64,000 nucleotides of DNA from Clostridia bacterium (lineage in GTDB: Bacteria; Bacillota; Clostridia; Christensenellales; QALW01), in the NCBI GenBank assembly GCA_045630945.1, contig JAZQTV010000108.1, forward strand, positions 39,094 to 103,093, written 5' to 3'. The position numbers and the translations under genes were made by a program. Positions 2,266 to 54,142 of the stretch are shown here, piece after piece. The notes under the pieces are model-generated. The model had not been told where the DNA came from, did not search any database, and saw nothing but the letters and a program-made list of their open reading frames with translations. The stretch's first letter is position 1. The number at the start of each line of letters is the position of its first letter.

Positions 2266-2277
2266 CTTAATTTTTTA

Positions 2278-3366: not shown

Positions 3367-3519
3367 AATCTTTACTTCTCCCTGTAATATTATACTCGTT
3401 AAGTATATCACATTGCACTCTTTTTCACAAGTGATTTTAAACAACAACCTGTTAAAAGCCATAATAAAAATAACGTTTGACTTATAATCGGTTTAGATAT
3501 ACAATTAAATAAAATTGAT

Positions 3520-3630: not shown

Positions 3631-3691
3631 AGGATGTTATAGCCGTTTTGGCTACACTACTCTCCTTCATTTTATGAAAGGAGATTTTTTT

Positions 3692-5460: not shown

Positions 5461-5499
5461 TTTTTATTGACATTCGTTTTTAACGGATGTATAATTATA

Positions 5500-5665
5500 T
5501 TGCTTCGGGGCAGGGCGAAATTCCCTGACCGGTGGTTATAGTCCACGAGCCTGCTTGGCTGATGCGGTGGAATTCCGCAACCGACGGTACAGTCCGGATG
5601 AGAGAATTGCTTATTTAAGTTATTTTTGGAATTCCCCCAAGCTTTTTTGGGGGAATTCTTTTTTT
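5500..5665 (+). promoter_or_regulatory. FMN riboswitch (RFN element) with terminator expression platform
   Basis: CUUCGGGGCAGGGCGAAAUUCCCUGACCGGUGGU...AGUCCACGAGC...GAUGCGGUGGAAUUCCGCAACCGACGGU.CAGUCCGGAUGAGAGAA matches the RFN consensus. It is followed by hairpin GGAAUUCCCCCA/UGGGGGAAUUC (5628-5658) and a U7 run. Confidence 0.85.
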
Positions 5666-7744: not shown

Positions 7745-7988
7745 TATTATGCACGTTGAAAAAGAGGAGTAAAGGCCGTTTTGCTTTTAAAGAGAGTGCC
7801 CCATTGGCTGAAAGGGCATACTGCATACGCCTTGAAGGTAGCTTTGGAGTGCTTTGGGTGAACGTTTATTCAGTAGCCCAAACGGTAAGGTGACCGTTAC
7901 ATCCCGTTAAGTGCCGATTTTTTCGGAATTAAGGTGGTACCGCGTTAATTATGTAACGTCCTTTTTTATAAGGGCGTTTTATTTTTTT
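7745..7988 (+). promoter_or_regulatory. T-box leader (tRNA-sensing riboswitch) upstream of valS
   Basis: AGAGAG stem-I motif at about 7791. The conserved T-box sequence AAUUAAGGUGGUACCGCG lies at 7927-7944. A terminator hairpin lies at 7955-7978 with a U-run to 7988. A GUA (Val) codon at 7838-7840 in context GAAG-GUA-G is a tentative specifier. Confidence 0.8.
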
Positions 7989-12823: not shown

Positions 12824-13285
12824 ATGTCAGTAGAAAAGAAAGTTCAATATCTTAAGGGCCTTGCAGACGGTCTTGATATTAATAGCGATACCAAAGAAGG
12901 TAAGCTTTTGCTTGCCATAATCGACACACTTTCATCCATCGCTAACGAGCTTGAGGACGTTGATGATGAACTTACACAGCTTGGCGAATACGTTGAAGAG
13001 CTTGACAACGATCTTTTAGAGGTTGAAGAGTATCTTTACGATGATGACGATGATTGTGATTGTGATTGCTGTGACTGCGATTGTGACGATGACGATTGCT
13101 GCTGCTGCGATTGCGATGATGACGATGATGATTGTTGCTGCTGTTGCTGTGACGACGATGATGACGATTTTGAGTATACAGAGTACGTTTGCCCTGCATG
13201 CAAGGAAACCGTTTCATTCTCAGGCGAATTTGCAGACGATGAGTTTGTTTGCCCCAGCTGCGGTGCAAAATTAGAAGAAGCTTAA
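12824..13285 (+). CDS. CD1247 N-terminal-domain-like small protein with a 43-residue Asp/Cys-only tract and a C-terminal zinc ribbon
   Basis: N-terminus is YLKGLADGLDINSDTKEGKLLLAIIDTL... A D/C-only tract follows, then CPACKE...(17)...CPSCG. GGAGG RBS. Position just after efp. Confidence 0.6.
   Translation: MSVEKKVQYLKGLADGLDINSDTKEGKLLLAIIDTLSSIANELEDVDDELTQLGEYVEELDNDLLEVEEYLYDDDDDCDCDCCDCDCDDDDCCCCDCDDDDDDCCCCCCDDDDDDFEYTEYVCPACKETVSFSGEFADDEFVCPSCGAKLEEA
13040..13168 (+). repeat. In-frame cryptic GAY/TGY trinucleotide tract (26 Asp + 17 Cys, no other residue)
   Basis: The 129 nt are read directly and consist only of GAT/GAC/TGT/TGC codons: DDDDDCDCDCCDCDCDDDDCCCCDCDDDDDDCCCCCCDDDDDD. 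Confidence 0.9.
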
Positions 13286-41553: not shown

Positions 41554-42978
41554 ATGAAATACGTTGTAACGCCCAAGGAAATGCTTGAAGCCGAAAACAC
41601 CGCATTTGCTTCAGGACTTGAACCCTTAAAGGCAATGGATACCGCAGGAAATCATATATATGAATTTGCAAAAGCATTCGATCGCATTCTTGTTGTTGCC
41701 GGTGCAGGAAATAACGGCGGCGACGGCTTTAAGGCGGCTTGCGAACTACATAATTCAGGCAAAAGCGTAGACGTATTGTTTGTAGGCGACAAAAGCAAAT
41801 TAAGTGCCCATGCGCTTCATTTTTACGAAAAAGCTGTTTCGCTTATTACCGACGAAATTAAAGCTGATTACCAATTGGTTATAGATGCGCTGTTTGGAAT
41901 CGGCTTTAAGGGTACGCTTAAGGATGATTTTCTTGATGCCGTAAGGCTTATAAATTCATTTAAGGAAAAGGCGCACATACTTTCGGTGGATATTCCGTCA
42001 GGTCTTAACGGCTTGACCGGCGAGGCTGAAAATGCAGTCTGTGCTGATACCACGATTACGTTTCAAGCAAAAAAATTAGGACATATAATAGGCAAGGGCG
42101 CAGATTTTTCGGGCGAGCTTATCGTAAAGGATATCGGTATTGACCTAGCCTCCGCCGTGCTTTATCCCGAACCCGAGGACGTTGAATTAAATAAAATTGC
42201 CCCCACGGCACACAAGGGCACACAGGGGCATATAGGTATTATTGCAGGCTCATTGGGTATGGAAGGGGCGGCATTGCTTGCTTCCTCGGCGGCGATCAAA
42301 ACGGGTGCAGGCAAGGTTTCACTTGCAGTTGATAAGAATATTATAAGCAATTTTTCTCACCGCGCACCCGAAATTATGGTGACAAGCCGTGAAAGCACCC
42401 CCGATTTTATCAAGGATAAAAGCGTTGTGCTTTTCGGTTGCGGTATAGGCAGGGGTGCTGACAACAAGGAAATTCTTGACACCCTTATCAACAACTGTAC
42501 CTGTCCGTTGGTAATTGATGCAGACGGCTTGTTTTTCTTAACTAAGGAGCATTTAAGGAATGCAAAATGTCCCGTTATTTTAACACCCCATATGGCTGAA
42601 GCCGCACGGCTTTTTAATACGGATATTGTAACGCTTTTAAGTGCACCGATAGAAAATTGCCGTAAATTTCATCTTGAAACAGGCGCAACGATACTGTTAA
42701 AAAGCAATTATAATCTTACCGTTTCCTTTGATGGAATGTTCATAAGCCAATTTGGTTGTAAGGGAATGTCTACCGCAGGCAGTGGTGACGTGCTTGCAGG
42801 GCTTGTGGCAGGTGCGGTAAATCTTCAAAAAAATATTACCGAGGGCGTTTTGCTTGGTGCATATCTTCACGGCACGGCAGGACGGTATGCCGAAAAAGAA
42901 AAAACCGAATACGCAATGACCGCTTCGGATATAATAAACAATATTTATAATGCATTTAAAGAAAAAGCAGGGAAATAA
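41554..42978 (+). CDS. nnr: Bifunctional NAD(P)H-hydrate repair enzyme Nnr (epimerase + ADP-dependent dehydratase)
   Basis: The YjeF_N part has GAGNNGGDG. The carbohydrate-kinase part has HKGTQGH.GIIAGS..GAA and GSGDVLAG. Confidence 0.85.
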   Translation: MKYVVTPKEMLEAENTAFASGLEPLKAMDTAGNHIYEFAKAFDRILVVAGAGNNGGDGFKAACELHNSGKSVDVLFVGDKSKLSAHALHFYEKAVSLITDEIKADYQLVIDALFGIGFKGTLKDDFLDAVRLINSFKEKAHILSVDIPSGLNGLTGEAENAVCADTTITFQAKKLGHIIGKGADFSGELIVKDIGIDLASAVLYPEPEDVELNKIAPTAHKGTQGHIGIIAGSLGMEGAALLASSAAIKTGAGKVSLAVDKNIISNFSHRAPEIMVTSRESTPDFIKDKSVVLFGCGIGRGADNKEILDTLINNCTCPLVIDADGLFFLTKEHLRNAKCPVILTPHMAEAARLFNTDIVTLLSAPIENCRKFHLETGATILLKSNYNLTVSFDGMFISQFGCKGMSTAGSGDVLAGLVAGAVNLQKNITEGVLLGAYLHGTAGRYAEKEKTEYAMTASDIINNIYNAFKEKAGK

Positions 42979-42990
42979 CCCTGCTTTTTA
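42966..42990. terminator. Bidirectional intrinsic terminator shared by nnr (+) and the candidate cluster (-)
   Basis: agcaggg(42966-42972)/ccctgct(42979-42985), with T-runs available on both strands. Confidence 0.65.
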
Positions 42991-42992
42991 TA

Positions 42993-43841
42993 TTATAATT
43001 TTTTGATCGCATCAACCACAGTTTCGCCTGCGGGGCGTTTTTTGATGGATATGTACTTTTCTTCAAGGAATTCTGCGTACTCCTTAAGGAACGGATAGCC
43101 TTTTAATTTATCAAGTTCTGCCTTAAACGTTTCAAGTCCCTCTTCATCGGTGTGGTCGGTTACACCTATGAACTGATCGATAACGTCCTTAAATAGTTCC
43201 ATTTTTTCTGCTTCATCAGGTGTTTGGGGAATAGGCTGAGGCTTTGCAAGCTCAGAAAAGCTACCCTCGCACGCAGTACGAAAATGCAAGAGCATGGTAG
43301 TAGGCAACAGTTCGTTTTTTAAAAGATTTACAATGTTTTCTCTTTTGCCACCGTTTATTATGTAGTTTATCGTGGGAACAACTATATAATATGACTGCGC
43401 GCTTGAAAAATTGGAACGGACTCTTGAAATATTTCTTACCTCGTCCTTTGTAATCTCAAGCACCATTTCACCCTCAAACTCATAAACAAGTCCCGTTTTC
43501 ATAAGGGATTCTATCTGCTCACTAAAAGTAAAAAGTTCCAGTGTGCTATCAGGTTTTCTTACAGAAAGCATCATCAACGCAGATATTTCCGCATTACTAA
43601 GCACATAACCGAGCCAGTTTAAGTCATACTGCTTATAGTCTTTTTTTTCTAACTTTTTTGTATTTACCGCATAATATATTCCGTCACATTTTTTGCCTAT
43701 AACCTTTTCTTTTCTTAACATTTCCATCATCTGCCGTGCAACAGAATAATCACTTTTTAAATGAAATTGAATATCGGCTATCGATACTTTATCCTTGTTT
43801 TTCAAAAAGGCGAATATAATTTTTTTAATTCCTTCTTCCAT
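42993..43841 (-). CDS. Winged-helix (FtsK-gamma/MarR-like wHTH) domain protein, remainder unknown
   Basis: N-terminal VSIADIQFHLKSDYSVARQMMEMLRKEKVIGKK.DGIYYAV has wHTH character. The 200-aa C-terminal part matches no family I recognise. AAGGAGG RBS. It is the last gene of the cluster. Confidence 0.45.
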   Translation of the reverse strand: MEEGIKKIIFAFLKNKDKVSIADIQFHLKSDYSVARQMMEMLRKEKVIGKKCDGIYYAVNTKKLEKKDYKQYDLNWLGYVLSNAEISALMMLSVRKPDSTLELFTFSEQIESLMKTGLVYEFEGEMVLEITKDEVRNISRVRSNFSSAQSYYIVVPTINYIINGGKRENIVNLLKNELLPTTMLLHFRTACEGSFSELAKPQPIPQTPDEAEKMELFKDVIDQFIGVTDHTDEEGLETFKAELDKLKGYPFLKEYAEFLEEKYISIKKRPAGETVVDAIKKL

Positions 43842-43865
43842 ATAAGTCCTCCTTTTTAAGAAAAC

Positions 43866-43887
43866 ACGTGGCGAATTATCGCCACGT
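43866..43887 (-). terminator. Internal hairpin (attenuator / partial terminator) between the Card1-like and wHTH genes
   Basis: Perfect 9-bp stem acgtggcga/tcgccacgt with a 4-nt loop. On the minus strand it is followed by GTTTTCTT and then the RBS of the next gene. Confidence 0.45.
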
Positions 43888-43889
43888 CT

Positions 43890-45125
43890 TTATCTTGACT
43901 TCAAGCCCGCCATAATCTTCAAGAGCTCTTTTTCATTTTTATCGGTAATATTATCTATAACTATTATGCCCATATCCTCAGCACGTTGACGGATGTACTT
44001 GCCTGTTTCATCCATTGCGTCAAGCGCAGTTGCAATAAGCACCTTTTTGGCGTACTTTCCGCCAAAGCGATGCGCAACGGTATTAAGCTTATAAAGCTCC
44101 TCCGCATCGAACGCACCGTTCTTACAGGAAATAAACATAGGCCAGATTCCGCGCATAGCGAGAATATCGATCTCGTTTTCAGTTTCGTATTTAACGTTTA
44201 AAATACCGTCCCAATCAATGCTTACACCGTTTACAACGTCATTGTACATTCTGTTGTTTTTATTATCGGTAGCTTGCTTAACGTAGTGGAACACTATCAT
44301 TTCAAGCACCTGACCTGCCTTGGTAAGACATTTTTTGACCTGCGGATTTTTAAACGTTATTTTGAATTCCGTTTCGTTTGAAGAATATGCGGTAATAACG
44401 CCTGCCTTTTTAAGTGCGGTGATTATATCCTTAAACTCAACGTATTCTTTATTTTTAAGCTGTCTTATAAGCCTGCTGTGCGAAATGCTGATGCTAAGTT
44501 CATTATCGACTGCGCATTCGCTTGCCGCCTGAAATACGTTTATCTGGGTATTCCACTTGCGCACGTCCGTCTTGCAGATATCCCACATTCTTTTGATATC
44601 CTCAACGAACTCACCGTCCATCAGCCACTCGTAAGTACCACGTGAAAACACGTTATTAGTATATTTGATATTTCCACCGTAAATGCGGATATTATCCCTT
44701 ACCGTGATAGCGGGGATACCCTCGGTAACAACGGTAATACCGTCTCTGTCACAATCTTCAACAGTACTGTTTCTTATGTTAAAGCGATGCATCTGTATGT
44801 GGCGCTCCTTATATTTCTCGCTTATTATACCAACCGCCACAAGATACAGGTCTTCACCGCCTGTAAGATCAAATATGCAATCAGGTTCCTCATCCACGAT
44901 TTTAGAAAGCGCATCCACGATACTGTCAAGCTTTTTGGAATCAAGGGGCATAGGAACAAAATCAATATGCTTGTCTCTGTCGGCAAAAAAGCTTTCGTAC
45001 AATTCCGTCTGCTTTATCAATTCCTCACGCCTGTTGCCTATTAAAATTACCTTTTCAGGTGCTTTTGCAAGACAGGCAACAATATTTTCGGTTGCGTTTT
45101 TATCAAAGAACTCAATATACGTCAT
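43890..45125 (-). CDS. Card1/Can2-like CARF + PD-(D/E)xK nuclease-fold protein (DUF1887 family), not CRISPR-associated here
   Basis: Start taken at ATG 45125 (MTYIEFFDKN), 1 nt after the anti-sigma stop. The CARF-like N-domain has ...VILIG... and FDLTGGEDLYLVAVG (compare the NxTGGTK loop of Card1). The C-domain has KAGQVLEMIVFHYV, NEIDILAM...(11)...FISCKNG and LYKLNTVAHRFGGKYAKKVLIAT. These parallel Card1 segments GGWFEEYVY, NELDVIYL...VIECKS and LYKLQAI..KFGLYVK as I recall them. Confidence 0.75.
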   Translation of the reverse strand: MTYIEFFDKNATENIVACLAKAPEKVILIGNRREELIKQTELYESFFADRDKHIDFVPMPLDSKKLDSIVDALSKIVDEEPDCIFDLTGGEDLYLVAVGIISEKYKERHIQMHRFNIRNSTVEDCDRDGITVVTEGIPAITVRDNIRIYGGNIKYTNNVFSRGTYEWLMDGEFVEDIKRMWDICKTDVRKWNTQINVFQAASECAVDNELSISISHSRLIRQLKNKEYVEFKDIITALKKAGVITAYSSNETEFKITFKNPQVKKCLTKAGQVLEMIVFHYVKQATDNKNNRMYNDVVNGVSIDWDGILNVKYETENEIDILAMRGIWPMFISCKNGAFDAEELYKLNTVAHRFGGKYAKKVLIATALDAMDETGKYIRQRAEDMGIIVIDNITDKNEKELLKIMAGLKSR

Positions 45126-45126
45126 T

Positions 45127-45363
45127 TTATTCTTTTGCTTCCAATTCCTCAATCATTGTTTTTTCGTCTTCATCAAAGACTTCGTTTATATCGCAAACGG
45201 CACCAATACCGTTCAAGCCGTCGTGTACGTTCTGAAATGCGCGAACCTTGTTAAAGCAGGTCTGACACCGCAAAATATGTGTGGTAACCTTTGATGCAAG
45301 CTCGCAATCAACCTTTTCGGTGCTAACAAAATCTATTATTTCATCAATTGTCAGATGTTTCAT
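45127..45363 (-). CDS. Small soluble anti-sigma factor, zf-HC2 (ZAS) type
   Basis: 78 aa. MKHLTIDEIIDFV.....HILRCQTC gives an exact H-x3-C-x2-C motif. No TM helix. It overlaps the upstream sigma-like gene by 20 nt. Confidence 0.6.
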   Translation of the reverse strand: MKHLTIDEIIDFVSTEKVDCELASKVTTHILRCQTCFNKVRAFQNVHDGLNGIGAVCDINEVFDEDEKTMIEELEAKE

Positions 45364-46168
45364 TTATATACTCCCGTTTGATAAGATTATTCATTCTGTT
45401 TACCCAGTCGCTTACGGTAGCCGCTCCGCCCTTTTTCATAAAGAACTCACCGTAAGTTACCTGCCCAAGAACACGGCCGTCACCGTATTCCTTTTTTAAG
45501 GCAGTATTTATTTTTTTAATCTGAGCTTCGCTGAATCTCATCCACGGCACACGTTCGGATGCTTTAAATATTACGTTACGCATTTTAAAAAGCGAAAGAT
45601 TTTCAAAATTCTTTACCACAAGTGCCTTGCTCTCGCTATTTGATACGTCAAAGGTAACAAGAATAACCGACTGTGCAAGCCACGTGAGAATTTTATAAAC
45701 GCTTGAATCTGAATTTACCACAATCCTGAAGGATATTTCAAGATTATCGTAAATATGCGGTGACGTTTCATAATCACCTGCGCTTATCATATCCTCTTCC
45801 TCTTCGTAAAAGCCTCGTTCCGAGGAAACCTTTATATATTCTTTACGGGCAAAATCCTTTTTAGTGTTTTTTGCAACCGTAAACATCCAATTTTTGAAGC
45901 CCTCAAAATCCCTGTTCAATTCACCCTCAGGACCGTTCTTCAAAAAGAAATGCGTAACACATTTTTTAATTATTTTATCCATTGATACGGAAAAAATGTC
46001 ATCCTCGTAACCTTTTCCCTTCAACAGACTGTCTGCATAGCACCATTTGGCGATGCTTGCCGTTAAAAGTGCCTGTGCAGATTCAAACATAGTATCGAAC
46101 CGTGCGCCTTTTTCATCAAAAAGCTCTTCAATTATCTGTTCAAATTCTTTTTCAGTAAAGCCTTGCAT
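45344..46168 (-). CDS. Sigma-70-family-like (ECF-type region 2 / region 4) protein, atypically long
   Basis: The region-2-like segment is DDIFSVSMDKIIKKCVTHFF...FKNWMFTVAKNTKKDFARK. The C-terminal region-4.2-like helix is GGAATVSDWVNRMNNLIKRE. It is paired with a ZAS anti-sigma. The call is tentative and by eye only. Confidence 0.45.
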   Translation of the reverse strand: MQGFTEKEFEQIIEELFDEKGARFDTMFESAQALLTASIAKWCYADSLLKGKGYEDDIFSVSMDKIIKKCVTHFFLKNGPEGELNRDFEGFKNWMFTVAKNTKKDFARKEYIKVSSERGFYEEEEDMISAGDYETSPHIYDNLEISFRIVVNSDSSVYKILTWLAQSVILVTFDVSNSESKALVVKNFENLSLFKMRNVIFKASERVPWMRFSEAQIKKINTALKKEYGDGRVLGQVTYGEFFMKKGGAATVSDWVNRMNNLIKREYINETSDN

Positions 46169-46200
46169 TTTGCCGTTCCTTTCATATAATGCTATATTGC

Positions 46201-46229
46201 ATTTTATAACATTTTTCGTAAAAAGTCAA
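46201..46229 (-). promoter_or_regulatory. Sigma-A-type promoter for the sigma/anti-sigma/Card1-like unit
   Basis: On the minus strand: TTGACT(46229-46224), 17-nt spacer, TAAAAT(46206-46201). The -35 context GTATTGACTTT is identical to the promoter at 51364-51392. Confidence 0.5.
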
Positions 46230-46247
46230 TACAGCATCATAGGAACT

Positions 46248-47882
46248 TTAAGGAATATACCGGTATTTCTCACTTGAAAAGCTTATTTTCTGTCCGCGGG
46301 CGCTTACGTCTGCCTGTTCGCCGTCAAATTCAGGGCACAGATAGCTTCTTTCCATTTTCGACCACAAAACGTCCTCACGCATCTGTGTAACGATGCATTC
46401 ACCGGGTGTGATGCTGTTAAGCTTGCTTACAGGCACAAGTGCAACAGTATCCTTTTCGTAGCGTTCGATAGTTTCACCGTTTCCGTTAAGCGCGGACATA
46501 GGCGAAATTATTGTTTTGTACCCGCATTCAAGAGAAAACTCACGCTTAGTTTCAGGATTGTTTGTTCCAAAGAAAATATGTGTATTAAGGTTATCCTTAA
46601 TTATTTCGGCAGTTTCCTTGCCGTACACGTTATTAAGCTGTGCATACGACTGAAGAATAAGCAAAAACCATATATTTCTTCCACCGCAGGCAGATATAAC
46701 CTTGTCAAAATCGTTAAATCTGGGCAAATTTCCGAACTCGTCAAGCAAGAAGTAGAACGGGCGTTCAAGTGAAATGCCTTTTTTACGGGATATTGCTATA
46801 AGCTCGCTGTACAGGTTGCTTAAAAACATACTTATTATCTCGTAATGCAAACATTCCTCATCCTTATACGTTACAAAAATAACCGTAGGCTGATCACCGT
46901 CAAGTTCACTCATTTCAAATGAGTTTGCACAGGTTATTCTGCGCACCGACGTATCACGAAACTTGCTTATTTTTGCCGCAAATGCGGATGAAATACATCT
47001 TCTTGTGTTATCAGCCTGCTCGATTATGCACTTTCTTGCAAGCTGATGCGCCTTTGACGTTTCAATATCTCTGTTACGGAAATATCCGTTATCGTAATTG
47101 GTTTTGCTATCTGAAAAGGAATCGAAAATTCTTAACACGGTATCAAAGGAAAAGTTATCCTCGGTTATTTTTCCCGATGCGCTATCCTCAAGCATACCGT
47201 AGATGATAGCCTTAAACAAATCCCTTGCCGAGTCATCCCAATACGGATCCTTTTGATTGGTTGCGGTAATAACCGTTTGTGAAAGAATGGTTATACCCTT
47301 TTCCACCTCGTCGTAGTATCCGTCCTTCACCTCGAATATATCTCTTTCAAGCTCTGCCTGATCATCATATATCCTGCCGTTAAACTTATTACGGGGACCT
47401 TCAGGAGTCTGCACCGCTTCAATCTGCTTTTCTACCTCAAGACTTTTTTGATAAAGGCGGTAATATTTAGTTAAGGGGTTCCAGCAATCGCTGTGATGAT
47501 AATCGGTAAAGTCAAGAAGTATTACCCTGTACCCTGCGTTTTCAAACTTTTTGGCATTCTTTATATACAGTTCCTGCTTGGGATCGCTTATTACCATACT
47601 TGGCTTATTCTTTTTGTTTAAAAGAACGTTAATGGTAGGGATAACGAAGCCCGTTGTTTTGCCGCTTCGGGTTGCACCTATGGCAAGTAGGTGGGTATTG
47701 GGGGTAAAGGTAACCTCTAATTTACCCTTGGCATCTCTTGTTATACAAATCGGTATGCCGTCAATATTCTGTTTTGAAAGGTTTGAAAACTTATACGTGC
47801 TGCTTCTGTGTGCTGCCACGTATTCTTCAGCACGCGTTATCTTTGCGTTTTCATAATCCTTGAAAATATCGATGTTAAGCAT
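46248..47882 (-). CDS. VirD4/TraG/TraD-type (type IV coupling protein-like) P-loop ATPase lacking transmembrane helices
   Basis: Walker A is LLAIGATRSGKTTGFVIPT. Walker B is PFYFLLDEFGNLP. It also has RNIWFLLILQSYAQLNNVYG (the T4CP arginine/Q-box-like block). There is no N-terminal hydrophobic segment. Its start abuts the stop of the upstream gene. Confidence 0.75.
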   Translation of the reverse strand: MLNIDIFKDYENAKITRAEEYVAAHRSSTYKFSNLSKQNIDGIPICITRDAKGKLEVTFTPNTHLLAIGATRSGKTTGFVIPTINVLLNKKNKPSMVISDPKQELYIKNAKKFENAGYRVILLDFTDYHHSDCWNPLTKYYRLYQKSLEVEKQIEAVQTPEGPRNKFNGRIYDDQAELERDIFEVKDGYYDEVEKGITILSQTVITATNQKDPYWDDSARDLFKAIIYGMLEDSASGKITEDNFSFDTVLRIFDSFSDSKTNYDNGYFRNRDIETSKAHQLARKCIIEQADNTRRCISSAFAAKISKFRDTSVRRITCANSFEMSELDGDQPTVIFVTYKDEECLHYEIISMFLSNLYSELIAISRKKGISLERPFYFLLDEFGNLPRFNDFDKVISACGGRNIWFLLILQSYAQLNNVYGKETAEIIKDNLNTHIFFGTNNPETKREFSLECGYKTIISPMSALNGNGETIERYEKDTVALVPVSKLNSITPGECIVTQMREDVLWSKMERSYLCPEFDGEQADVSARGQKISFSSEKYRYIP

Positions 47883-49526
47883 CTAGCTCACCCCCTCTAT
47901 AAAGCCAAGTCCCTTGCCGCGTTTATGTACGGTAAGATTATTTTCGCTCATAAGCCCTCTTACGCACTCAACCGTAATGATTCTGTCGCCCTCGTACACG
48001 GCGTTTCTTAATGCCGAGTCAACTATCTGGCGGAAGCTTTTTGCATCAAGCGTTGCAAGCACACCGTCAACGCCTTCCTCAAACACCTTGCCGTCAAGAC
48101 CGAACACCTTGGAGCGTACGTTTATTATTGAGCGCACTGCCTGAATTTTTTCTTTTTCGTCCATTCTTCTTGTACGAAGAACGTCACATTCTTCAGAAAG
48201 CTTTTCAAGCACCTGATTTTTCTCGGATGCAAACAGTATGAATACTGCGCCCGAAATATCCATTGATACTGCAGGATTGAACAGCTTGAAGCGTTTTCTG
48301 TACTCGTAATCAAGCAGATTGCTTAAATCATCAAGCATCCCCTTATCAAGCTCCTCGCAGTCCTTTATCATAAACACGGTACGTGCAGTCTTGGTTTCAG
48401 AAAGTCCCCTCAACACAAGGTTTTCACCTGTGCCGGAAAAGTCACGCTGACTCAGCGCGCCCGCATCAAGCTCGATAACAGGAGTATCCTTAAGTCCTTT
48501 TTTGATGGCGTAGTAGTACATATCCCTTACGTACTCCTCTTGCGAAACTATCATCAGGGGTGCGTACGCCCTTTCGGAGCAATTACTTAAAACCGAAAGG
48601 CTTTGAAGTATCTTTTTAATTTCACCCTCGCGCCTTACAGGCACCGAATCAAACAGCTTGGGTTCAAAACTTATTTTTTGCTCCGTCTTAACGTCAAAGG
48701 GAATGTCGTTAAGCTGTGCCGCCACGTCCTTTTGCTTTTTAAGAAGGATTTTTTCCTTATCCTCATCAGAAAGCAAGGGTGAAAAAACCACCTTGGCAAA
48801 TTCCCTGTCGTACACGCCTGCGTTTACGGTACCTAACAGGCAAGCCTTTTCAATTATTCTTGCGCGGCGGTTCTTTTTAGGCATCATACCCTCGCCCGTT
48901 TTTGCTAAAACGTGCTCAAACACGTTTTTAGCACCTGCTGAACGGGACACCGTATAGAGAATATCAAGGTATAAATCCTTGTTCTCTTTATCGTACTTAA
49001 TGCCCATAAGGCAGTTGAACAGGTCGTTCCACCTTGCACCGTGGCGTATTCTTTTTACTGCATTAGGCGCATCCTTATAAATGCTGATGCCGTGATATTC
49101 AAGGAACGAAAGTGTCGCCATAGCCTGCACCGAGCCATGCTCAGACAGGAACACAAGCTCCGTTTCCACGGTCTTGGGTGTAAGCTCGCCCATCCCCTTG
49201 AACAGTTGTTTTTTTATGCTTAACGCTTCACGCTTTTGAGCAAGCAAGGTTTTATCGCATTCACTAAGTCTGATATCCTGTCCACTTTTTTTAGCGAACT
49301 CAATCGTCCTTATAAGCCTTTCGTAGCTCTCGATATTCTTTAAGCCCTTAAGTTGTTCACTTCTTGATTCGAGGTAAAAATCCTTAACGTTTTCTTCATC
49401 AAGGCAGAACACCTCAGCAAGCTCGCGGTATATTTTCTTCAGCGTTTTTTCTTCTACGAAGTCGCCTATAAGCGCTTCAAGAATGAAGAACTGTGTAAGG
49501 AACGGCTCTATTAAGTAGTAATTCAT
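47883..49526 (-). CDS. Hypothetical protein: Sel1-like helical N-part + Clp-D2-like AAA+ module with a degenerate P-loop
   Basis: The C-terminal 230 aa align by eye with the ClpA/B D2 module. Parallels are IELDAGALSQRDF (DMSEY..), VFMIKDCEELDKGMLDDLSNLLD (V.LFDEIEKAH.DV.N.LLQ.LD) and VSMDISGAVFILFASEKN (VDF.NT.IIMTSN). Where GPTGVGKT is expected the sequence reads LMIVSQEE. The N-part GSVQAMATLSFLEYHGISIYKDAPNAVKRIRHGARWND is Sel1-repeat-like. Confidence 0.4.
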   Translation of the reverse strand: MNYYLIEPFLTQFFILEALIGDFVEEKTLKKIYRELAEVFCLDEENVKDFYLESRSEQLKGLKNIESYERLIRTIEFAKKSGQDIRLSECDKTLLAQKREALSIKKQLFKGMGELTPKTVETELVFLSEHGSVQAMATLSFLEYHGISIYKDAPNAVKRIRHGARWNDLFNCLMGIKYDKENKDLYLDILYTVSRSAGAKNVFEHVLAKTGEGMMPKKNRRARIIEKACLLGTVNAGVYDREFAKVVFSPLLSDEDKEKILLKKQKDVAAQLNDIPFDVKTEQKISFEPKLFDSVPVRREGEIKKILQSLSVLSNCSERAYAPLMIVSQEEYVRDMYYYAIKKGLKDTPVIELDAGALSQRDFSGTGENLVLRGLSETKTARTVFMIKDCEELDKGMLDDLSNLLDYEYRKRFKLFNPAVSMDISGAVFILFASEKNQVLEKLSEECDVLRTRRMDEKEKIQAVRSIINVRSKVFGLDGKVFEEGVDGVLATLDAKSFRQIVDSALRNAVYEGDRIITVECVRGLMSENNLTVHKRGKGLGFIEGVS

Positions 49527-49627
49527 AAATCATGCCTCCTTCTGCGCATTCGCAATTTTCTTTCTTCATACAATATAACGTAACTATCCTTGTTTTTTCG
49601 CACACCTCCTAAATATTAAAAATCGGT

Positions 49628-51277
49628 TTAAAACGGAAGCTCATCCTCAAACTCATATGAATCTTCAATTAAATTGAATTTGTTGCGCCACTTTTCATAT
49701 GCATCAAGCAATGCAGGAACGTCCTCAAAAGCATTATTGTTTGCCGTGCGGTGCTGTTTTACCTTTTTTTCATCCAGCTCGATTGCGCCCACAGGCTTGC
49801 CCTCAAAGGATACGCACACAATAGGGTTACTATCCGCCTTCCAATCTATAAGACAGTTGTTAAGCGATTCACCCAGCTTGCGCACTTGTGCAAGGTTTTT
49901 TACCGAAGCAAATTCAAAGCCATCCACCACGGTATCGAAAATATCCTTGTGGGGCATACGCATGGGCACGGAAAAATCACAGGCTATTTTGTAATTTTCA
50001 AAATAATCGCCCGACCATTTTTTAATTTCCTTTTTGCGCATCGGCTCACTTAAAAGCGCAAATTCCGATGCGTAAAAGCAAAGTCTTCCCCAGCTGCTTA
50101 TAATGCTATCGGTAAACGTGACCGCCGAAACGTTTTTGGAATATTCGTTAAGGAACGTATCAAGCGCAGGCTTTATTTTAAGATCGCTTAAAATTTTAAA
50201 TGCGGACTTTGATTTTAACACCTTTAAAAAGCAATCAACGTTGTTTGTATAACTGAAAAGCAGTTCGCATTCGTTTTTATAAAACAAAAGTTCGGGGTTT
50301 ATAAAAAATTGCTTTCTTACCGATTTCGCCCTGGGCAGAGTACTGTTTTCGTATAAGCTTATTGCTTTTTCGGGATTTTTAAGATTTTTCTTAACGCCTG
50401 TAAACGAACTGTCAACCTGACGCACAACCTGCCAGAAGCTACCTGCTTCTTCCCTTTCGGTAACGTACGGAATTGCATTATAAAATCCCTTATCAAAGCC
50501 TGTGAACTGTGTGTATGTAATAAGCTTTTCTATATCAAGCATTCCGTCATTTTTGATTTCAAGAAGCTTTTTAATGGCTTTATTCACTCTTGAATCAGTT
50601 TTAAGCACCGTATCAACTGCACTTGAAGTAAGAATATACGGGTACTTGGTAATATCGCGCTTTATAAACACCCTGTTTTCCTTATCCGATACCTCCACGT
50701 AGGTTTTACCCTTTTTCACGTTGAATATGAGGTGTTGATATATAGGGAAATTTATAACCGCATTACCGACAAGCTGCTCAAGCACAGGCATTTCTTTCAT
50801 ATTTATTATCTCGCAGGAAACAGTTAATTTACCACGCCTGAAATACACGCTTACGTCGCGCATAGTTATATACGGCATAGAAACCTTTGAGCATCTTGGG
50901 CACTTAAACGCACCCTTTGGCTTAACAAACGGATTGAATACAAGGTCTCTTTCATCCTCGCAGAGCATACGCATCTGTCTTTCGCCCCATTTTTCCACTC
51001 TGCTTCGCTTTATAAGTCCGTGTTCTTTTTTATTGGTTGAAAAAATGGGATTAAGGAAACGTGCATATGCAGGTACCCTGTTAAGACAATGCGGACATTC
51101 AACGTAGTGCTGTGTAAGCACCGCGGTGTTTTTATCGTCGTTTCTTATTGCCTCGGTAAACCTTCTTTGCAACTTGCCAAGAAGCAGTTCTACAGCAATA
51201 TCTATTGAAATTTCCTTTTCACGCTTCTTTAAAATATAGCCGTCTGCAAGCTGGAAGTTGAATTTTTCTCTTTTCAC
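49628..51277 (-). CDS. PcfJ-like domain protein with an N-terminal zinc ribbon
   Basis: GTG start with a GGAAAGGA RBS. It has CPHC...(about 63)...CPRC. The C-terminal KNLAQVRKLGESLNNCLIDWKADSNPIVCVSFEGKPVGAIEL resembles the PcfJ-like core (L..EG..M.HCV..Y...I..v). An acidic tail follows. Confidence 0.5.
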   Translation of the reverse strand: MKREKFNFQLADGYILKKREKEISIDIAVELLLGKLQRRFTEAIRNDDKNTAVLTQHYVECPHCLNRVPAYARFLNPIFSTNKKEHGLIKRSRVEKWGERQMRMLCEDERDLVFNPFVKPKGAFKCPRCSKVSMPYITMRDVSVYFRRGKLTVSCEIINMKEMPVLEQLVGNAVINFPIYQHLIFNVKKGKTYVEVSDKENRVFIKRDITKYPYILTSSAVDTVLKTDSRVNKAIKKLLEIKNDGMLDIEKLITYTQFTGFDKGFYNAIPYVTEREEAGSFWQVVRQVDSSFTGVKKNLKNPEKAISLYENSTLPRAKSVRKQFFINPELLFYKNECELLFSYTNNVDCFLKVLKSKSAFKILSDLKIKPALDTFLNEYSKNVSAVTFTDSIISSWGRLCFYASEFALLSEPMRKKEIKKWSGDYFENYKIACDFSVPMRMPHKDIFDTVVDGFEFASVKNLAQVRKLGESLNNCLIDWKADSNPIVCVSFEGKPVGAIELDEKKVKQHRTANNNAFEDVPALLDAYEKWRNKFNLIEDSYEFEDELPF

Positions 51278-51321
51278 GTTAATGCACGTCCTTTCCGTTT
51301 ATATTATAAACGTTTTAATCC

Positions 51322-51334
51322 TGCGAATTTCGCA
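51322..51334. promoter_or_regulatory. Perfect palindrome in the leader of the PcfJ-like gene (candidate operator)
   Basis: TGCGAA-T-TTCGCA, located between the -10 box (51364) and the start codon (51277). Confidence 0.3.
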
Positions 51335-51363
51335 AGCATAGAAAAATTTAGTGAGGGAACGAA

Positions 51364-51392
51364 ATAATATCACATTTTTTTATTAAAGTCAA
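51364..51392 (-). promoter_or_regulatory. Near-consensus extended -10 sigma-A promoter for the PcfJ-like/AAA+/T4CP-like unit
   Basis: On the minus strand: TTGACT(51392-51387), 17-nt spacer ending in TGA, TATTAT(51369-51364). The context is GTATTGACTTT. Confidence 0.55.
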
Positions 51393-51400
51393 TACCATTT

Positions 51401-51436
51401 AAAAAAAATTACACTCTGCAAAAAAATTGCAGAGTG
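51401..51436 (-). terminator. Intrinsic terminator ending the permease/C26/TIR/GATase operon
   Basis: cactctgc(51412-51419)/gcagagtg(51429-51436). On the minus strand it is followed by TAATTTTTTTT. Confidence 0.7.
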
Positions 51437-51442
51437 CATATT

Positions 51443-52477
51443 TTAAATCTTAAATAAATATTGGGGTGCAGTAACCGTTTCGTTTGCGCCTTCACGTATA
51501 ACCGTGCGTTTTTTTAAAACGCCCTGCTTATCAAGCGTTTGAAGTGCTTCGTATGTAAGCGGGTAATCCGAATACCCTTCATACCCATCAAGCACCGTAT
51601 CCACCGCATCAACACATTGCCAGAAATCAAGTTCATTCTTTTCAAGCGCACCTTTAAGTGCGCCGTACGCCCTGATACGTGATTCGGTATCCATAGGTTT
51701 TACGCTTAAGGGTGCGCTAAAGGGTGCGATTTCAACGTGATCGGCATATATTTTACCCGATGAGCAGGCAGGTATAAGCACTGCTTCTGAAGCATCCCCA
51801 GGGAACTTATCGGGCATTGAAGCCACGTATGCGCCGTGGGATGCAAAGCTTACGTACAGGGGAGCATCTATTCTTGCAAAGGATATGGCATCCGGTTCAT
51901 CCGTATTAATGCTAAGCCCCACTATTTCGGCAGGCATCTTACAAAACGCTTTTGCCATAGCCTGCGCACCGTCGTCACCACGTTCCTTATTGCTTGCAAT
52001 AAGGTGACACATAACGTCACTTATGTGCAGATATGCGCCGTCTGCAAGCTGAGGATAATGCTCACTTTCTATGCCCGTAAGATACGAATGCATAATTCTG
52101 CCGCCTTCGTGAAGGCTTCGGGCTATTTTTTCATACTCGCGCAGATTTCCTTTAAAAAATCCGTTACTACCCGTTGCGGCGTATGCAAGATATGGCTTGC
52201 CGTCAAAATCGCTTACGAACGGTTGCGCCCAATTATCACCGCCGCCTGCATTTGAACGGCTATGTATTATACCTAAATTGCCGGAGAAATTTTTTCCGTC
52301 AGTTTTTTCTAAAAGATCGCTTAACGCACCTGTAAGCTTTGCAAGGTTCATTTTACCGTCACAAATAGTGGTTATGCCTGTGTAATACCCCCCTGCATAA
52401 GCTTCTTGTTTTCTTATGAGCTCAATAAGAATAGGCGCCGCGGCTTTTTTGCCTACGTAACCTGCCATATTGCACAT
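51443..52477 (-). CDS. Class II (Ntn-type) glutamine amidotransferase-domain protein with an unknown C-terminal domain
   Basis: MCNMAGYVGKKAAAPILIELIRKQE...GIIHSRSN parallels the GlmS/PurF-type N-terminus (MCGIVGYVG..AAPIL..L..LEYRG...GIGHTRWA). No SIS domain is present. The last 130 aa or so are unassigned. Confidence 0.6.
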   Translation of the reverse strand: MCNMAGYVGKKAAAPILIELIRKQEAYAGGYYTGITTICDGKMNLAKLTGALSDLLEKTDGKNFSGNLGIIHSRSNAGGGDNWAQPFVSDFDGKPYLAYAATGSNGFFKGNLREYEKIARSLHEGGRIMHSYLTGIESEHYPQLADGAYLHISDVMCHLIASNKERGDDGAQAMAKAFCKMPAEIVGLSINTDEPDAISFARIDAPLYVSFASHGAYVASMPDKFPGDASEAVLIPACSSGKIYADHVEIAPFSAPLSVKPMDTESRIRAYGALKGALEKNELDFWQCVDAVDTVLDGYEGYSDYPLTYEALQTLDKQGVLKKRTVIREGANETVTAPQYLFKI

Positions 52478-52489
52478 TTATTTTTCCCC

Positions 52490-54142
52490 CTATTTGTATG
52501 ACCAATTCTGATTAGAAAGTCTGATTCTTGAAACCTTACCCGTTTCCTTCTCCATATCTATGTTGATACTGTAATCTCTTTCCTTGTATTCGGAATATGA
52601 CCACATATGTGAATACGAGCCCTCATAATAATCAAGTTTATCAGACGAACTGTTTATACTGTCAAAGGAGCTATTGAAATCCACACCCAACGCTATCTGC
52701 ACGTTCACCTTATCGTAATCTGACACACTAACCGTATATACTGCGCAGTTTTCAACAGCAACCTGATATTCGGAATAATTTTTCACTATCACAGAAAGCC
52801 TCGCTTCACCCTTACTTAACGTAATGCTTGCAGTATTACCCGCAGGAACGTCGCCTGAGCTTTCCTTAATATTCCAGCCATCATTAATAAATTCACTTAC
52901 AGGTGCGGGTAATTCGTACAGCTTGCCTTCAACGGAAATAACGCTTGAAAATCCGCTTCCCATACTACTTGGTGCAACGTATTTTGATAAATATTCAGGT
53001 CTTTCAGTCTTTGTTTCGGTTTTTTCGTTGCTTTCCTTTTGATTGATAACGGTAATACTTGAATACTTAAGGTAGTCTGCTTTCGTATAGCACATAAACG
53101 AAACGCCGTTACTGTTGTTTTTATCACTGTAATATCTTAACGAAACGTAATCGGTACCGTCGTTTCTGTATCCGGGTGCGCCGTAAGCTTCAACTATTGC
53201 ATCAACGTCCGATAAAACAGTTATTCCTTTTGCAAGCTTGATATCGGTTATACTGCCATCCCATTCGATACCGCCCACAAGACAATCCTTAACCTCTCTT
53301 GCGTGACCGCTTGTGTTATATACCATTACGCCGATTTTCTTGCCGTTTTTGGACATATTGAAACTAAGAGTTTCTTTACCAAGAACCTTTGAGGTATCGC
53401 TTGTGCCTGATGAAGATATTGTCCAACCCATATTGCTTAAAACGGAATAATCGCAGGGAAGCTGAATGATTCCATCGCCCATATCAATGGTGAAATCAAA
53501 AAGTTCATCCGACATTTCGGGTGCAATGTAAACAGGCGGAAGCATATCTGAAGGATTTTCCGTTGCCGTAGGCGAGGATGCATCATCCTTATCCTTAGGA
53601 AGCGCAACGGTAATTACTATCGCAATTACAAGAACTATCGCAACCGCAATCAAGAAGAACGTTTTGCTTTTAAAGAAGCTTACCTCCTCCTTTTTCTCCT
53701 CTTTCTTTTCAGGTGTGCTTGCGGTAAAGCTTATACCGTCGCCACCACCAATAATGCCCTTTAATTCGCGAAGCATTTTTTCAATGGCGGCAGATTTATT
53801 TTCATATGCCGCATAACGCTGAACGTTTGTAAGGTAGAAATTAAAGTCATCCTTAAGCTTACAGTTTTCAAGCATAAACGGCAATATAACCTTGCCTTCG
53901 TTTATGGCGATATCAACCTCTCTTGAAACCCACTTGGATGCCTGTGATTTTGAGGATAAAATAAGCACAAACGCTTTTGCGCCCCTTATTGCCTGAGGTA
54001 TTTCGGAAGCGTAGCTTGCGCCGCCCTGAATGCAATCGGGTGCCATCCAACAGGAAATTCCGTTTGCCTCAAGCACGTCCCTTACCCAACGTGCTTCTTC
54101 AAGCTCTTCAGCCTTATAGCTTATAAATACGTCCTTCTGCAT
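52490..54142 (-). CDS. TIR-domain protein with a single TM helix and two tandem extracytoplasmic repeat domains
   Basis: N-terminal TIR_2 pattern: DVFISYKAEE...A.WV...L...GISCWMAP.....G..Y..EI..AI..AK.FVLILS..S..SKWVSREVD (Glu75 at the catalytic-Glu position). The TM helix FFLIAVAIVLVIAIVITVAL spans residues about 161-181 (nt about 53600-53662). Two domains of about 150 aa follow that align to each other (GIIQLPCDYSVLSNMGWTISSSG.../GKLYELPAPVSEFINDGWNIKESSG..., ending ITVINQ / IRLSNQ). Confidence 0.8.
   Translation of the reverse strand: MQKDVFISYKAEELEEARWVRDVLEANGISCWMAPDCIQGGASYASEIPQAIRGAKAFVLILSSKSQASKWVSREVDIAINEGKVILPFMLENCKLKDDFNFYLTNVQRYAAYENKSAAIEKMLRELKGIIGGGDGISFTASTPEKKEEKKEEVSFFKSKTFFLIAVAIVLVIAIVITVALPKDKDDASSPTATENPSDMLPPVYIAPEMSDELFDFTIDMGDGIIQLPCDYSVLSNMGWTISSSGTSDTSKVLGKETLSFNMSKNGKKIGVMVYNTSGHAREVKDCLVGGIEWDGSITDIKLAKGITVLSDVDAIVEAYGAPGYRNDGTDYVSLRYYSDKNNSNGVSFMCYTKADYLKYSSITVINQKESNEKTETKTERPEYLSKYVAPSSMGSGFSSVISVEGKLYELPAPVSEFINDGWNIKESSGDVPAGNTASITLSKGEARLSVIVKNYSEYQVAVENCAVYTVSVSDYDKVNVQIALGVDFNSSFDSINSSSDKLDYYEGSYSHMWSYSEYKERDYSINIDMEKETGKVSRIRLSNQNWSYK

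Follow-up and report, generated by a model that had tools for sequence, protein, structure and literature searches.

A conserved Oscillospirales gene island joining a soluble coupling ATPase, a Walker-less AAA+ protein and a putative private sigma regulon

Introduction

Among the described systems with which the gene island reported here can be compared, the DdvS/DdvA pair of Myxococcus xanthus consists of an extracytoplasmic function (ECF) sigma factor and a zinc anti-sigma factor and regulates a defence island made up of CBASS (cyclic-oligonucleotide-based antiphage signalling) and CRISPR genes; DdvA, which RseP processes, is a transmembrane protein of ~970 residues whose TPR-CHAT sensor lies in the periplasm (PMC11506125). 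The island lies in a stretch of 64,000 nucleotides (the whole of which is hereafter the window) from the genome of a Clostridia bacterium (assembly GCA_045630945.1, contig JAZQTV010000108.1, positions 39,094 to 103,093), where seven co-directional minus-strand open reading frames (ORFs) span positions 42993-51277. In the order of transcription, they encode a Zn-ribbon protein (G1), an AAA+ protein devoid of Walker motifs (G2), an ATPase related to type IV coupling proteins (T4CP), a sigma-like protein (G4), an anti-sigma-like protein (G5), a CARF nuclease and a winged helix-turn-helix (wHTH) protein (G7). By analogy with the myxobacterial pair, an ECF-type sigma factor would be held by a zinc-binding anti-sigma factor and would control immune genes, its release being the switch. 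The two systems differ in that the anti-sigma protein is here soluble and 78-92 aa long, in that the putative regulon includes ClpP and the T4CP rather than CBASS/CRISPR genes, and in that the sigma protein is far more divergent, its sigma-4 region being unrecognisable.

A protease, an anti-sigma factor and an ECF sigma factor are also found together with CARF/SAVED-type proteins, in an immune context, in the CalpL-CalpT-CalpS and Craspase-Csx30-RpoE systems, in which a protease activated by cyclic oligoadenylate (cOA) or by RNA cleaves the anti-sigma factor, and sigma is the output. Here, on the contrary, there is neither a CRISPR array nor a cyclase, the CARF domain, an optional component, is joined to a nuclease, and the protease would be ClpP with a pseudo-AAA+ adaptor, apparently placed downstream of sigma; the Lon-like G2, unlike CalpL, is devoid of protease, CARF and SAVED domains. 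The likeness to CalpL/T/S or to Craspase is conceptual only.

The single proteins of the island also have described counterparts. The CARF nuclease shares with Card1/Can2 the combination of a CARF domain and a putative PD-(D/E)xK nuclease domain, and its TGG loop and nuclease D...K residues align with those of Can2 (7bdv); however, no type III CRISPR context was found in ~50 loci and its motif III reads S-x-K. The T4CP has the nucleotide-binding domain, the all-alpha domain, the TraG-D_C region and the intact Walker A/B motifs of the VirD4/TraG/TraD (CD1115) proteins, but neither a membrane anchor nor a type IV secretion system (T4SS) or relaxase, and it is paired with ClpP, the pseudo-AAA+ protein and a gamma-like wHTH protein. 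SigmaR-RsrA of actinomycetes, a thiol-stress regulon that induces Clp and Lon, resembles the island in having a soluble zinc-binding anti-sigma (ZAS) protein and Clp/Lon proteases among the sigma targets, and differs from it in being housekeeping and vertically inherited, with a canonical ECF sigma factor, no T4CP and no immune-type cargo. Lastly, HerA/FtsK "capture" defence systems have been proposed by comparative genomics, with no mention of T4CP, ClpP or sigma (PMC10853773, PMC12839542). FtsK and these systems share with the island a ring ATPase of the FtsK/HerA superfamily, a fast-evolving wHTH protein, effectors and a location in conflict islands; in the present case, however, the ATPase belongs to the T4CP clade, its partner is the protease ClpP, not a nuclease, and the control would be exerted by a private sigma factor. 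Since the T4CP, G2 and the CARF nuclease each lack a feature of their own family (respectively, the anchor and the T4SS context, the Walker motifs, and the CRISPR/cOA context), they are to be regarded as derived relatives. No published description of this gene combination was found in the literature.

Results

Conserved core and variable cargo

The earlier note on the window, a model's reading of its sequence, had described a CRISPR-independent module of seven genes, and the positions that it assigned to the minus-strand genes, to their overlaps, to the two promoters and to the two flanking terminators were borne out by the ORF call and by the scans performed here. As a multigene module, the locus is conserved beyond this genome, and its homologs occur together in ~30 species. 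The comparison covered the neighbourhoods of G2 homologs and 29 species-level genome loci, and was carried out by our own (crude) ORF calling, clustering and tblastn; the presence counts refer to 32 non-redundant G2-bearing loci, and several of those lacking sigma/anti-sigma end at a contig edge. The hosts of the relatives are Oscillospiraceae, Acutalibacteraceae, Faecousia and related metagenome-assembled genomes (Oscillospirales). In the 29 species-level genomes, as well as in metagenome contigs, the same gene order recurs, that is, ClpP, G2, T4CP, a short G7, sigma, anti-sigma and a variable cargo, and it is maintained over ~30 species at 25-73% identity. ClpP is present in 29/32 G2 loci, the T4CP in 30/32, G7 in 23/32 and the sigma/anti-sigma genes in 22/32. 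The ClpP of the relatives is ~200 aa long (the catalytic motifs are present in the inspected sequence), and the ClpP, G2 and T4CP genes either abut or share a few bases at their ends, a sign of likely translational coupling; the T4CP start directly abuts the G2 stop also in the window.

The conserved core is, in this way, represented by ClpP, the pseudo-AAA+ protein, the soluble T4CP, the gamma-like wHTH protein and the sigma/anti-sigma pair, the CARF nuclease and the PcfJ-like G1 being accessory. The seven-gene composition that had been proposed does not stand, given that the CARF nuclease is found in 10/32 loci and the PcfJ-like gene in 3/32, and that the core includes a ClpP which is absent from the window. 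The window and its nearest relative (L039, whose G2 is 73% identical) are devoid of both ClpP and the short G7, and we hold, with moderate confidence, that the locus represents a version without ClpP of an island conserved on Oscillospirales chromosomes.

Besides the CARF nuclease, the cargo comprises a YbjN-like pair, an AAA+/FtsH-M41 protease (~1150 aa) and a transmembrane (TM) RyR protein, in 9/32 G2 loci each, a Metallophos(-ASCH) protein in 8/32, and SIR2, HAD_SAK_2, ADP-ribosylglycohydrolase (ARH), GDSL and SprT-like proteins. The same CARF nuclease subfamily was retrieved in 40 more metagenome loci (L041-L080), mostly with AAA-M41, TM-RyR or YbjN proteins and mostly without sigma, G2 or T4CP; together with these partners, it looks like a portable effector module. 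CRISPR-like arrays were found in none of the 81 sequences scanned (80 loci and the window). The earlier note had also suggested a search for a cyclase fold that might have gone unrecognised. No cyclase family was recognised in the cargo of any locus, and the YbjN-like pair, AAA-M41, TM-RyR, Metallophos-ASCH and the other cargo proteins were, on present evidence, rejected as candidate ligand sources.

A side observation concerns repair-type genes, which recur in the cargo of six loci (L001, L005, L017, L018, L022 and L028), some of them behind the private promoter motif described below. They encode Metallophos(+ASCH), HAD_SAK_2, ADP-ribosylglycohydrolase and SprT-like proteins, the latter with a PcrA/UvrD tudor domain, and, in one case, a NADAR-DarT1-like protein, which suggests a theme of nucleic-acid damage or ADP-ribosylation.

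The flanks of the locus vary in every genome, and neither the flank scan nor the Pfam lists of the neighbourhoods disclosed any recurrent integrase, relaxase or VirB4. No relative of G2 was found in 2.9 million viral contigs and no copy of G2 or sigma in PLSDB plasmids. A phage- or plasmid-borne origin was rejected on the basis of this lack of viral or plasmid copies, and the locus is not embedded in an integrative conjugative element (ICE).

An ECF-type promoter motif ahead of the ATPase operon

The motif TGCGAAAAA-N13-(C)GTT(A/T)TA is located upstream of ClpP in nearly every relative (~27). In the 492 kb of loci, TGCGAAAAA-N13-CGTTATA was counted 37 times along the operon strand and a single time along the reverse one, versus 0.55 times in shuffles. 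The distance from the first T to the G of GTT is 23 nt in 29/42 intergenic sites, and the sites are placed 30-150 nt ahead of start codons. The geometry of the motif, with a hexamer, 16 nt and a CGT-containing -10 block (TGCGAA-N16-CGTTA), is the layout of ECF promoters, the SigW promoter being TGAAAC-N16-CGTA.

In the window, the motif is found only at G2 and G1. The canonical copy, TGCGAAAAA-N13-CGTTATATT (49572-49602, minus strand), is the only exact match in 64 kb; it lies between G1 and G2, 46 nt ahead of the ATG of G2 (47883-49526, minus strand, 547 aa), and is followed by a GGAGG ribosome-binding site. The variant copy, TGCGAAATT-N13-CGTTTATAA (51304-51334, minus strand), maintains the 23-nt spacing and lies upstream of G1 (49628-51277, minus strand, 549 aa) and downstream of a sigma-A-like site. 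The -35 block of this variant (51322-51334) is a perfect palindrome, TGCGAAATTCGCA, not shared by the other motif copies, which could be an operator. The dedicated promoter of an ECF sigma factor is usually autoregulatory; in at least four relatives (L008, L013, L019 and L029), the sigma gene has an extra copy of the motif ahead of it, upstream of the sigma-A-type promoter. Other extra copies are placed before the long-G7/Metallophos unit, the SprT-like+tudor gene, GDSL (three copies in L016) and the genes designated c13, c33 and c36.

The sigma operons of the window and of the relatives have near-consensus sigma-A promoters with an extended -10 (in the relatives, TTGACx-17-TGnTAtAAT). In the window, the sigma-A-type promoter-like site of the sigma/anti-sigma/CARF nuclease operon is located at 46201-46229 (minus strand; TTGACT-17-TAAAAT), and a second one, upstream of G1, at 51364-51392 (minus strand; TTGACT-17-TATTAT, extended -10 TG, 10/12 consensus matches). 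Both sites (51392-51364 and 46229-46201 along the operon strand) are within the top three of the promoter consensus scan. As already remarked in the earlier note, they have the 11-mer GTATTGACTTT in common, which is present exactly twice in 64 kb (0.02 expected), both times at these promoters. The presence of an ECF-type promoter at the ATPase operon and of a sigma-A-type promoter at the sigma operon suggests that sigma probably drives the ATPase/protease machine.

The sigma-like and anti-sigma-like proteins

The sigma-like protein G4 (45344-46168, minus strand, 274 aa) belongs to a family of 277 representative clusters. Alone, the protein of the window matches TIGR02937 (E 0.007) under every curated cutoff; at the family level, Sigma70_r2 is the only recurrent Pfam family, recognised in 8/41 members of one set and in 14/62 of another (best 9e-6). 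The comparison sequences of RpoE, SigW, RsiW and RsrA were entered by hand, and the hhalign and alignment results against them depend on their correctness. Within this limit, a diverse sigma-like profile aligned with the sigma-2 of SigW over 77 columns, i.e., the whole domain, with an hhalign probability of 88% and E 3e-6. The AlphaFold model (mean predicted local distance difference test, pLDDT, 86.8) consists of two helical domains connected by a disordered acidic linker; the N-terminal domain is sigma-2-like, and the C-terminal one is larger and helical, with an invariant SDWxNR helix (SISDWxNRxN in its longer form) in the place expected for the recognition helix. On these grounds, G4 would be a divergent member of the sigma-70 family, presumably with sigma function.

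The anti-sigma-like protein G5 (45127-45363, minus strand, 78 aa) overlaps the sigma gene by 20 nt. It has no database match, neither in Pfam at E 0.1 (zf-HC2 included) nor with anti-sigma factors among PDB profiles; when the alignments of sigma, anti-sigma, G1 and CARF were compared with PDB profiles, the best E values were 0.016-0.4. In 16 sequences, H3, H29, C33 and C36 are invariant (H3-x25-H29xxxC33xxC36, the HHCC form), and the HxxxCxxC stretch aligns in register, weakly, with RsiW and RsrA. No TM segment is present, the soluble family ranges from 78 to 92 aa, and the pairing of sigma and anti-sigma is kept in 24 loci.

Sigma/anti-sigma pairs were also observed without the ClpP-G2-T4CP trio, in two loci. 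At L037 10001-14550, the cargo consists of TM-RyR and TIR-LRR proteins; at L035 605-11489, it consists of proteins of 874, 1162 (Tubulin_2), 744 and >1700 aa (transglutaminase core).

The soluble coupling ATPase and the Walker-less AAA+ protein

The T4CP-like ATPase (46248-47882, minus strand, 544 aa) matches T4SS-DNA_transf (5.2e-52), TraG-D_C (6e-27) and TrwB_AAD_bind (1.2e-17) in Pfam and, with 238.8 bits, falls under the cutoff (250) of the NCBIfam CD1115-family equivalog. The two Walker motifs, A (GATRSGKT) and B (YFLLDEF), are intact. A scan for hydrophobic 19-mers (>1.8) detected no N-terminal TM anchor in 30 members. The label of TM-less T4CP-like ATPase is correct, considering the domain matches, the intact Walker motifs and the lack of an N-terminal hydrophobic segment. 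The closest annotated relatives are coupling proteins of the plasmid CD1115 family, ~27% identical; the one inspected is 724 aa long, has an extension of ~117 aa ahead of the aligned region, and lies within a true Gram-positive conjugation module. Near the T4CP of the island, neither relaxase nor VirB4 was found in the neighbourhood Pfam lists and in the flank scan. In L022 (744 aa) and L032 (767 aa), the T4CP is fused to the FtsK-gamma-like wHTH protein G7, with the same layout as an FtsK motor plus gamma, which argues that the two act as a single unit. PADLOC recognises only the CARF nuclease and, in the T4CP, a partial mad8-like match; none of the tools consulted describes the module.

G2 has no match in Pfam, NCBIfam, PHROG or PADLOC. 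Its family counts 31 clusters among 5.8 billion proteins, all of ~550 aa. The AlphaFold model built from the family alignment (pLDDT 86.8) displays a helical N-domain and a Lon/Clp-type AAA+ fold, and the top 50 Foldseek matches in the PDB are all LonA AAA+ modules (best E 4.5e-9). The Walker A (GxxGxGK[ST]) and Walker B (hhhhDE) motifs are absent from the family, with no Gly-rich loop or Lys, and the consensus at the corresponding positions is PLLVxxxDxY and TVFLxKxCEE. The model supports, at the fold level, the description of G2 as a P-loop-less Clp-like AAA+ protein, i.e., a putative pseudo-ATPase.

The last ~12 residues of G2, disordered in the model, contain the conserved motif (R/K)x(F/L)G(Y/F)xGG (KGLGFIEG in the window). 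The (L/F)G(F/Y)xGG portion resembles the IGF loop of ClpX, the element that docks on ClpP; in ClpX this is an internal loop, whereas in G2 the motif is located in a C-terminal tail that is disordered, and a ClpP gene adjoins G2 in 29 loci. Conserved short hydrophobic tails were observed in other proteins, too: they read (E/D)(L/M)PF in G1, FDxLF(D/E) in the short wHTH protein (e.g., L019 13314-13844) and (L/F)G(F/Y)xGG in G2 (47883-47925), and they could be docking peptides for the T4CP or ClpP.

The CARF nuclease and the proteins G1 and G7

Homolog alignment placed the start of the CARF nuclease (ORF 43890-45152, minus strand; gene 43890-45125) at the ATG at 45125, 1 nt past the anti-sigma stop, as the earlier note had stated. 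The protein matches the PADLOC profile CARF4--CARF_PDDEXK over its full length (2.8e-33, residues 11-413) and Pfam Card1_endonuc with 26.5 bits (cutoff 26.4); the sole PDB profile matches are Can2 7bdv and DUF1887 8bao, very weak (E 0.016). The invariant loop DLTGGE corresponds, in the alignment, to NVTGGT of Can2 7bdv, and NEID...SCK aligns with NELD...ECK of Can2. Since the acidic residue of motif III is Ser (S-C-K, not E-C-K) in all 8 members, nuclease activity is plausible but not assured. Over 5.3 kb, a JGI metagenome contig (L034) shares 99.5% identity with the window; at 2195-3431 (window 43890-45125), one extra nucleotide (A, at gene position 790) breaks its CARF nuclease up into ORFs of 274 and 136 aa. 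This may be either a sequencing error or a natural inactivation of the effector.

G1 has two invariant CxxC pairs (Zn ribbon), a weakly PcfJ-like C-terminal domain and an invariant C-terminal (E/D)(L/M)PF tail. Pfam PcfJ (PF14284) weakly matches 4/6 members of the family (best E 0.0039), but it gives no match with the G1 of the window at E 0.1. Of the seven protein calls of the earlier note, six are maintained, several of them by weak profile or fold evidence; G1 is maintained as a weakly PcfJ-like protein. The family consists of only 4 clusters, represented in 3/32 G2 loci and in L062. A G1 homolog without other genes of the system was also observed at L040 10001-11632, in an unrelated island whose genes include MoxR-type AAA+/DUF2201 and encode, in addition, a NAD-dependent DNA ligase, an nSTAND-like NTPase, an HD protein and a Cas4-like/DUF2779 protein.

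G7 (42993-43841, minus strand, 282 aa) is a tandem wHTH protein, whose N-terminal wHTH is FtsK_gamma-like (Pfam E 1.3e-3). The window harbors the long form, with a C-terminal extension; the short form of the relatives (~180 aa) comes after the T4CP.

Boundaries and surroundings of the island

An intrinsic terminator-like hairpin at 51410-51438 (minus strand; 12-bp stem with 5 GC pairs, T-run) ends the upstream GATase-like/TIR unit and is the left boundary of the island. At the right boundary, the island shares with the convergent nnr gene a bidirectional terminator, AAAAAGCAGGG-ttatttc-CCTGCTTTTT (42966-42990), whose hairpin and T-run (42990-42966) were read directly from the sequence. Between the genes of the CARF nuclease and of the wHTH protein (43866-43887, minus strand), a scan also revealed a GC-rich hairpin followed by a short T-run, a possible attenuator or terminator. 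The elements listed in the earlier note were recovered; its inventory had missed this hairpin (43887-43866) and the two ECF-type motifs (49602-49572 and 51334-51304).

The window scan showed no break in G+C content at the island. The flanks consist of housekeeping genes, with nnr (nnr/YjeF), recX, a diacylglycerol kinase and an antiporter on one side, and peptidase C26, CitMHS, PfkB, rhamnosidase and ABC transporters on the other; the housekeeping nature of nnr, the left neighbour of the earlier note, was confirmed. In agreement with that note, the window has no CRISPR-like array (array scans) and no match with cas, cas10 or CD-NTase (PADLOC profiles, 1e-5).

On the other side of the terminator, immediately upstream of the island, two minus-strand genes lie 12 nt apart (51443-54142). 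One encodes a 550-aa TIR_2 protein (Pfam 3.5e-21), which has a TM segment in its middle and, at its C-terminus, a large domain, and which also matches the SAVED_TIR/ThsB-like profiles of PADLOC, and the other a 344-aa protein with a glmS/purF-type N-terminal nucleophile (Ntn) amidotransferase N-terminus; the two may be a separate defence gene pair. A link between this TIR protein and the TIR-LRR of L037 was considered and not established, the similarity being only generic, in the TIR domain. The Rfam search of the window yielded only three elements at gathering score, all distant from the island, namely a tetrahydrofolate (THF) riboswitch (3519-3631), a flavin mononucleotide (FMN) riboswitch (5497-5613) and a T-box leader (7747-7966). 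At 13055-13169 there is a series of imperfect tandem repeats, rich in GAT/GAC/TGC, whose periods are 15, 30 and 36 nt. In the region 1-43000, PADLOC matched mad3 (3e-25), MzaA (7e-18), PDC-M62A, mad8, PtuA and AbiLi, one ORF each; these matches may reflect generic ATPase or other housekeeping domains.

Discussion

The model that we propose is that of a private sigma regulon driving a coupling-ATPase/protease machine with swappable cargo. As a whole, we regard it as evenly balanced between acceptance and doubt; that this is a conserved system with its own sigma regulon seems rather likely, while the detail of the protease machine is tentative, and we incline slightly to doubt it. According to the model, the sigma-A promoter would provide for the constitutive synthesis of G4, of the soluble HHCC zinc anti-sigma protein G5 and of the following cargo (here, the CARF nuclease and the wHTH protein), and G5 would keep G4 inactive. 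The inactivation of the anti-sigma protein, for which thiol or zinc attack, known from other ZAS proteins, and proteolysis are candidate triggers, would free sigma, and the free G4 would transcribe from the TGCGAA-N16-CGTTA sites. Its targets would be the operon of the T4CP and G2, together with ClpP and the FtsK-gamma-like wHTH protein in the relatives, and also G1 in the window. Once induced, the T4CP, G7, G2 and ClpP might form a DNA- or substrate-tracking protease, in which the T4CP would be the motor and the wHTH protein the DNA reader, and G2 would bridge to ClpP (in the window, the ClpP of the host) by means of its IGF-like tail. Such a machine might degrade proteins bound to the DNA of an invader, or the anti-sigma protein itself as a positive feedback. 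The CARF nuclease would be a swappable effector, with a ligand source outside the island.

Several observations weigh against this model. As for the call of G4, which the earlier note had presented as a sigma-like protein, the sigma-2 part stands (Sigma70_r2 in 14/62 members, SigW hhalign 88%), but no homology to sigma-4 was found: the family has no Pfam r4 match, the alignment of the C-domain with the sigma-4 of SigW or RpoE is not significant (hhalign E 0.2-0.5), and the two-domain model has no significant Foldseek match in the PDB or BFVD, where phage and bacterial sigma factors are listed only among non-significant matches and were not used as evidence. In the window, moreover, the sigma gene is not preceded by the ECF-type motif, ClpP is absent and the CARF nuclease is outside the control of the motif. 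In L016, L018, L026 and L031, the motif or the core is present with no sigma gene within reach, and in the sigma-only loci L035 and L037 no clear intergenic copy of the motif was found. Lastly, an immune role would be suggested by the types of cargo, i.e., the CARF nuclease, SIR2, the AAA-FtsH protease and the TIR-LRR next to sigma/anti-sigma-only loci; however, the repair-type cargo (Metallophos-ASCH, HAD_SAK_2, ARH, SprT-like) may suit a stress/repair regulon equally well.

Such a regulon, non-immune and similar to sigmaR-RsrA, represents an alternative in itself. In this case, the anti-sigma protein would sense electrophile or oxidative damage, and a DNA-tracking protease (T4CP, G2 and ClpP, with SprT-like proteins) would clear, together with repair enzymes, DNA-protein crosslinks or ADP-ribosyl adducts. 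The soluble ZAS-type anti-sigma protein, the inclusion of ClpP in the regulon, the motif ahead of the SprT-like+tudor gene, of GDSL and of the long-wHTH/Metallophos unit, and the ARH, HAD_SAK_2 and single NADAR-DarT1 genes of these loci are in favour of it, but the G2 family is very rare and patchy (31 clusters in 5.8 billion proteins), the flanks differ in each genome and the cargo includes classic suicide/immune effectors, such as the CARF nuclease, SIR2 and TIR-LRR, so that we deem it unlikely. A more far-reaching version of the proposed model, also unlikely in our opinion, sees a new class of inducible immune or repair machine, switched on by the private sigma factor with its own promoter code, in which the motor, the FtsK-gamma-like reader and a dead AAA+ ring as the bridge feed DNA-attached proteins of the invader to ClpP; the substrates attacked might be relaxases, terminal proteins, and crosslinked or pilot proteins, and the plug-in effectors would include the CRISPR-independent CARF nuclease. 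It might also be supposed that the wHTH protein G7 binds TGCGAAAAA...CGTTATA as its operator or activator site, or that this is a promoter read by an alternative sigma factor of the host, G4 being a sigma-like regulator with another role. No homology to sigma-4 was found for G4, the motif occurs in loci with no sigma gene nearby, and the G1 copy of the window is a perfect palindrome, TGCGAAATTCGCA, as is typical of the operators of dimeric HTH proteins; however, this palindrome is found only in that copy, the two blocks with fixed spacing and a CGT-containing -10 match ECF promoters (such as that of SigW), and the motif is strictly strand-specific and placed 30-150 nt upstream of starts. We consider this explanation quite unlikely.

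The wiring suggested in the earlier note, in which the invader is sensed by an NTPase unit made up of G1, G2 and the T4CP, the CARF nuclease responds to a ligand and transcription is switched, as the output, by the sigma/anti-sigma pair, might be invoked on the basis of the cotranscription and tight packing of the CARF nuclease, sigma and anti-sigma genes, and modules of protease, anti-sigma and sigma are known in type III CRISPR immunity. Nevertheless, the CARF nuclease, found in only 10/32 loci and elsewhere often without sigma or T4CP, cannot be a core relay; its CARF domain is joined to a nuclease, not to a protease, and no locus contains a cyclase. Furthermore, the ECF-type motif precedes the NTPase operon, which argues that this operon is a regulatory target and not the source of the signal, and the sigma operon is under a sigma-A-type promoter. 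The proposed direction of the signal is not supported, and the wiring appears improbable. Even less credible, and in our view very improbable, is that the locus is the debris of an ICE, of which there would be left a coupling protein, a PcfJ-like gene and the sigma-like regulator of the element. The nearest annotated relatives of the T4CP are, indeed, VirD4-like proteins of the plasmid CD1115 family, and PcfJ is a family of conjugative plasmids. Against this, the gene order is kept in ~30 species with no recurrent relaxase, VirB4 or integrase, every member of the T4CP family lacks the TM anchor yet keeps the Walker motifs, plasmids and phages have no copies of G2 or sigma, and the plasmid T4CPs that lie in true conjugation modules are only 27% identical.

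Conclusions

The locus is a real, rare and conserved gene system of uncultured gut Clostridia, apparently undescribed. The unexpected feature is the joint occurrence of a co-opted soluble coupling protein, a putative pseudo-AAA+ adaptor of ClpP and a probable private sigma/promoter code. If the proposed model is correct, the island would disclose a soluble type IV coupling protein co-opted to act where there is no secretion channel, a Lon/Clp-type AAA+ protein that is catalytically dead and possibly recruits ClpP to a foreign motor, and a sigma/zinc-anti-sigma pair, very divergent, whose private promoter (TGCGAA-N16-CGTTA) can be read and defines a small mobile regulon; the promoter motif renders the regulatory hypothesis directly testable. 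Card1/Can2-like CARF nucleases that are never near CRISPR would also reopen the question of what non-CRISPR CARF domains sense. Should the unlikely idea of a machine feeding DNA-attached proteins to ClpP prove true, this would be a system attacking the protein moiety of invading nucleoproteins. The hosts are abundant uncultured Oscillospirales of the gut and rumen, whose defence repertoire is poorly known.

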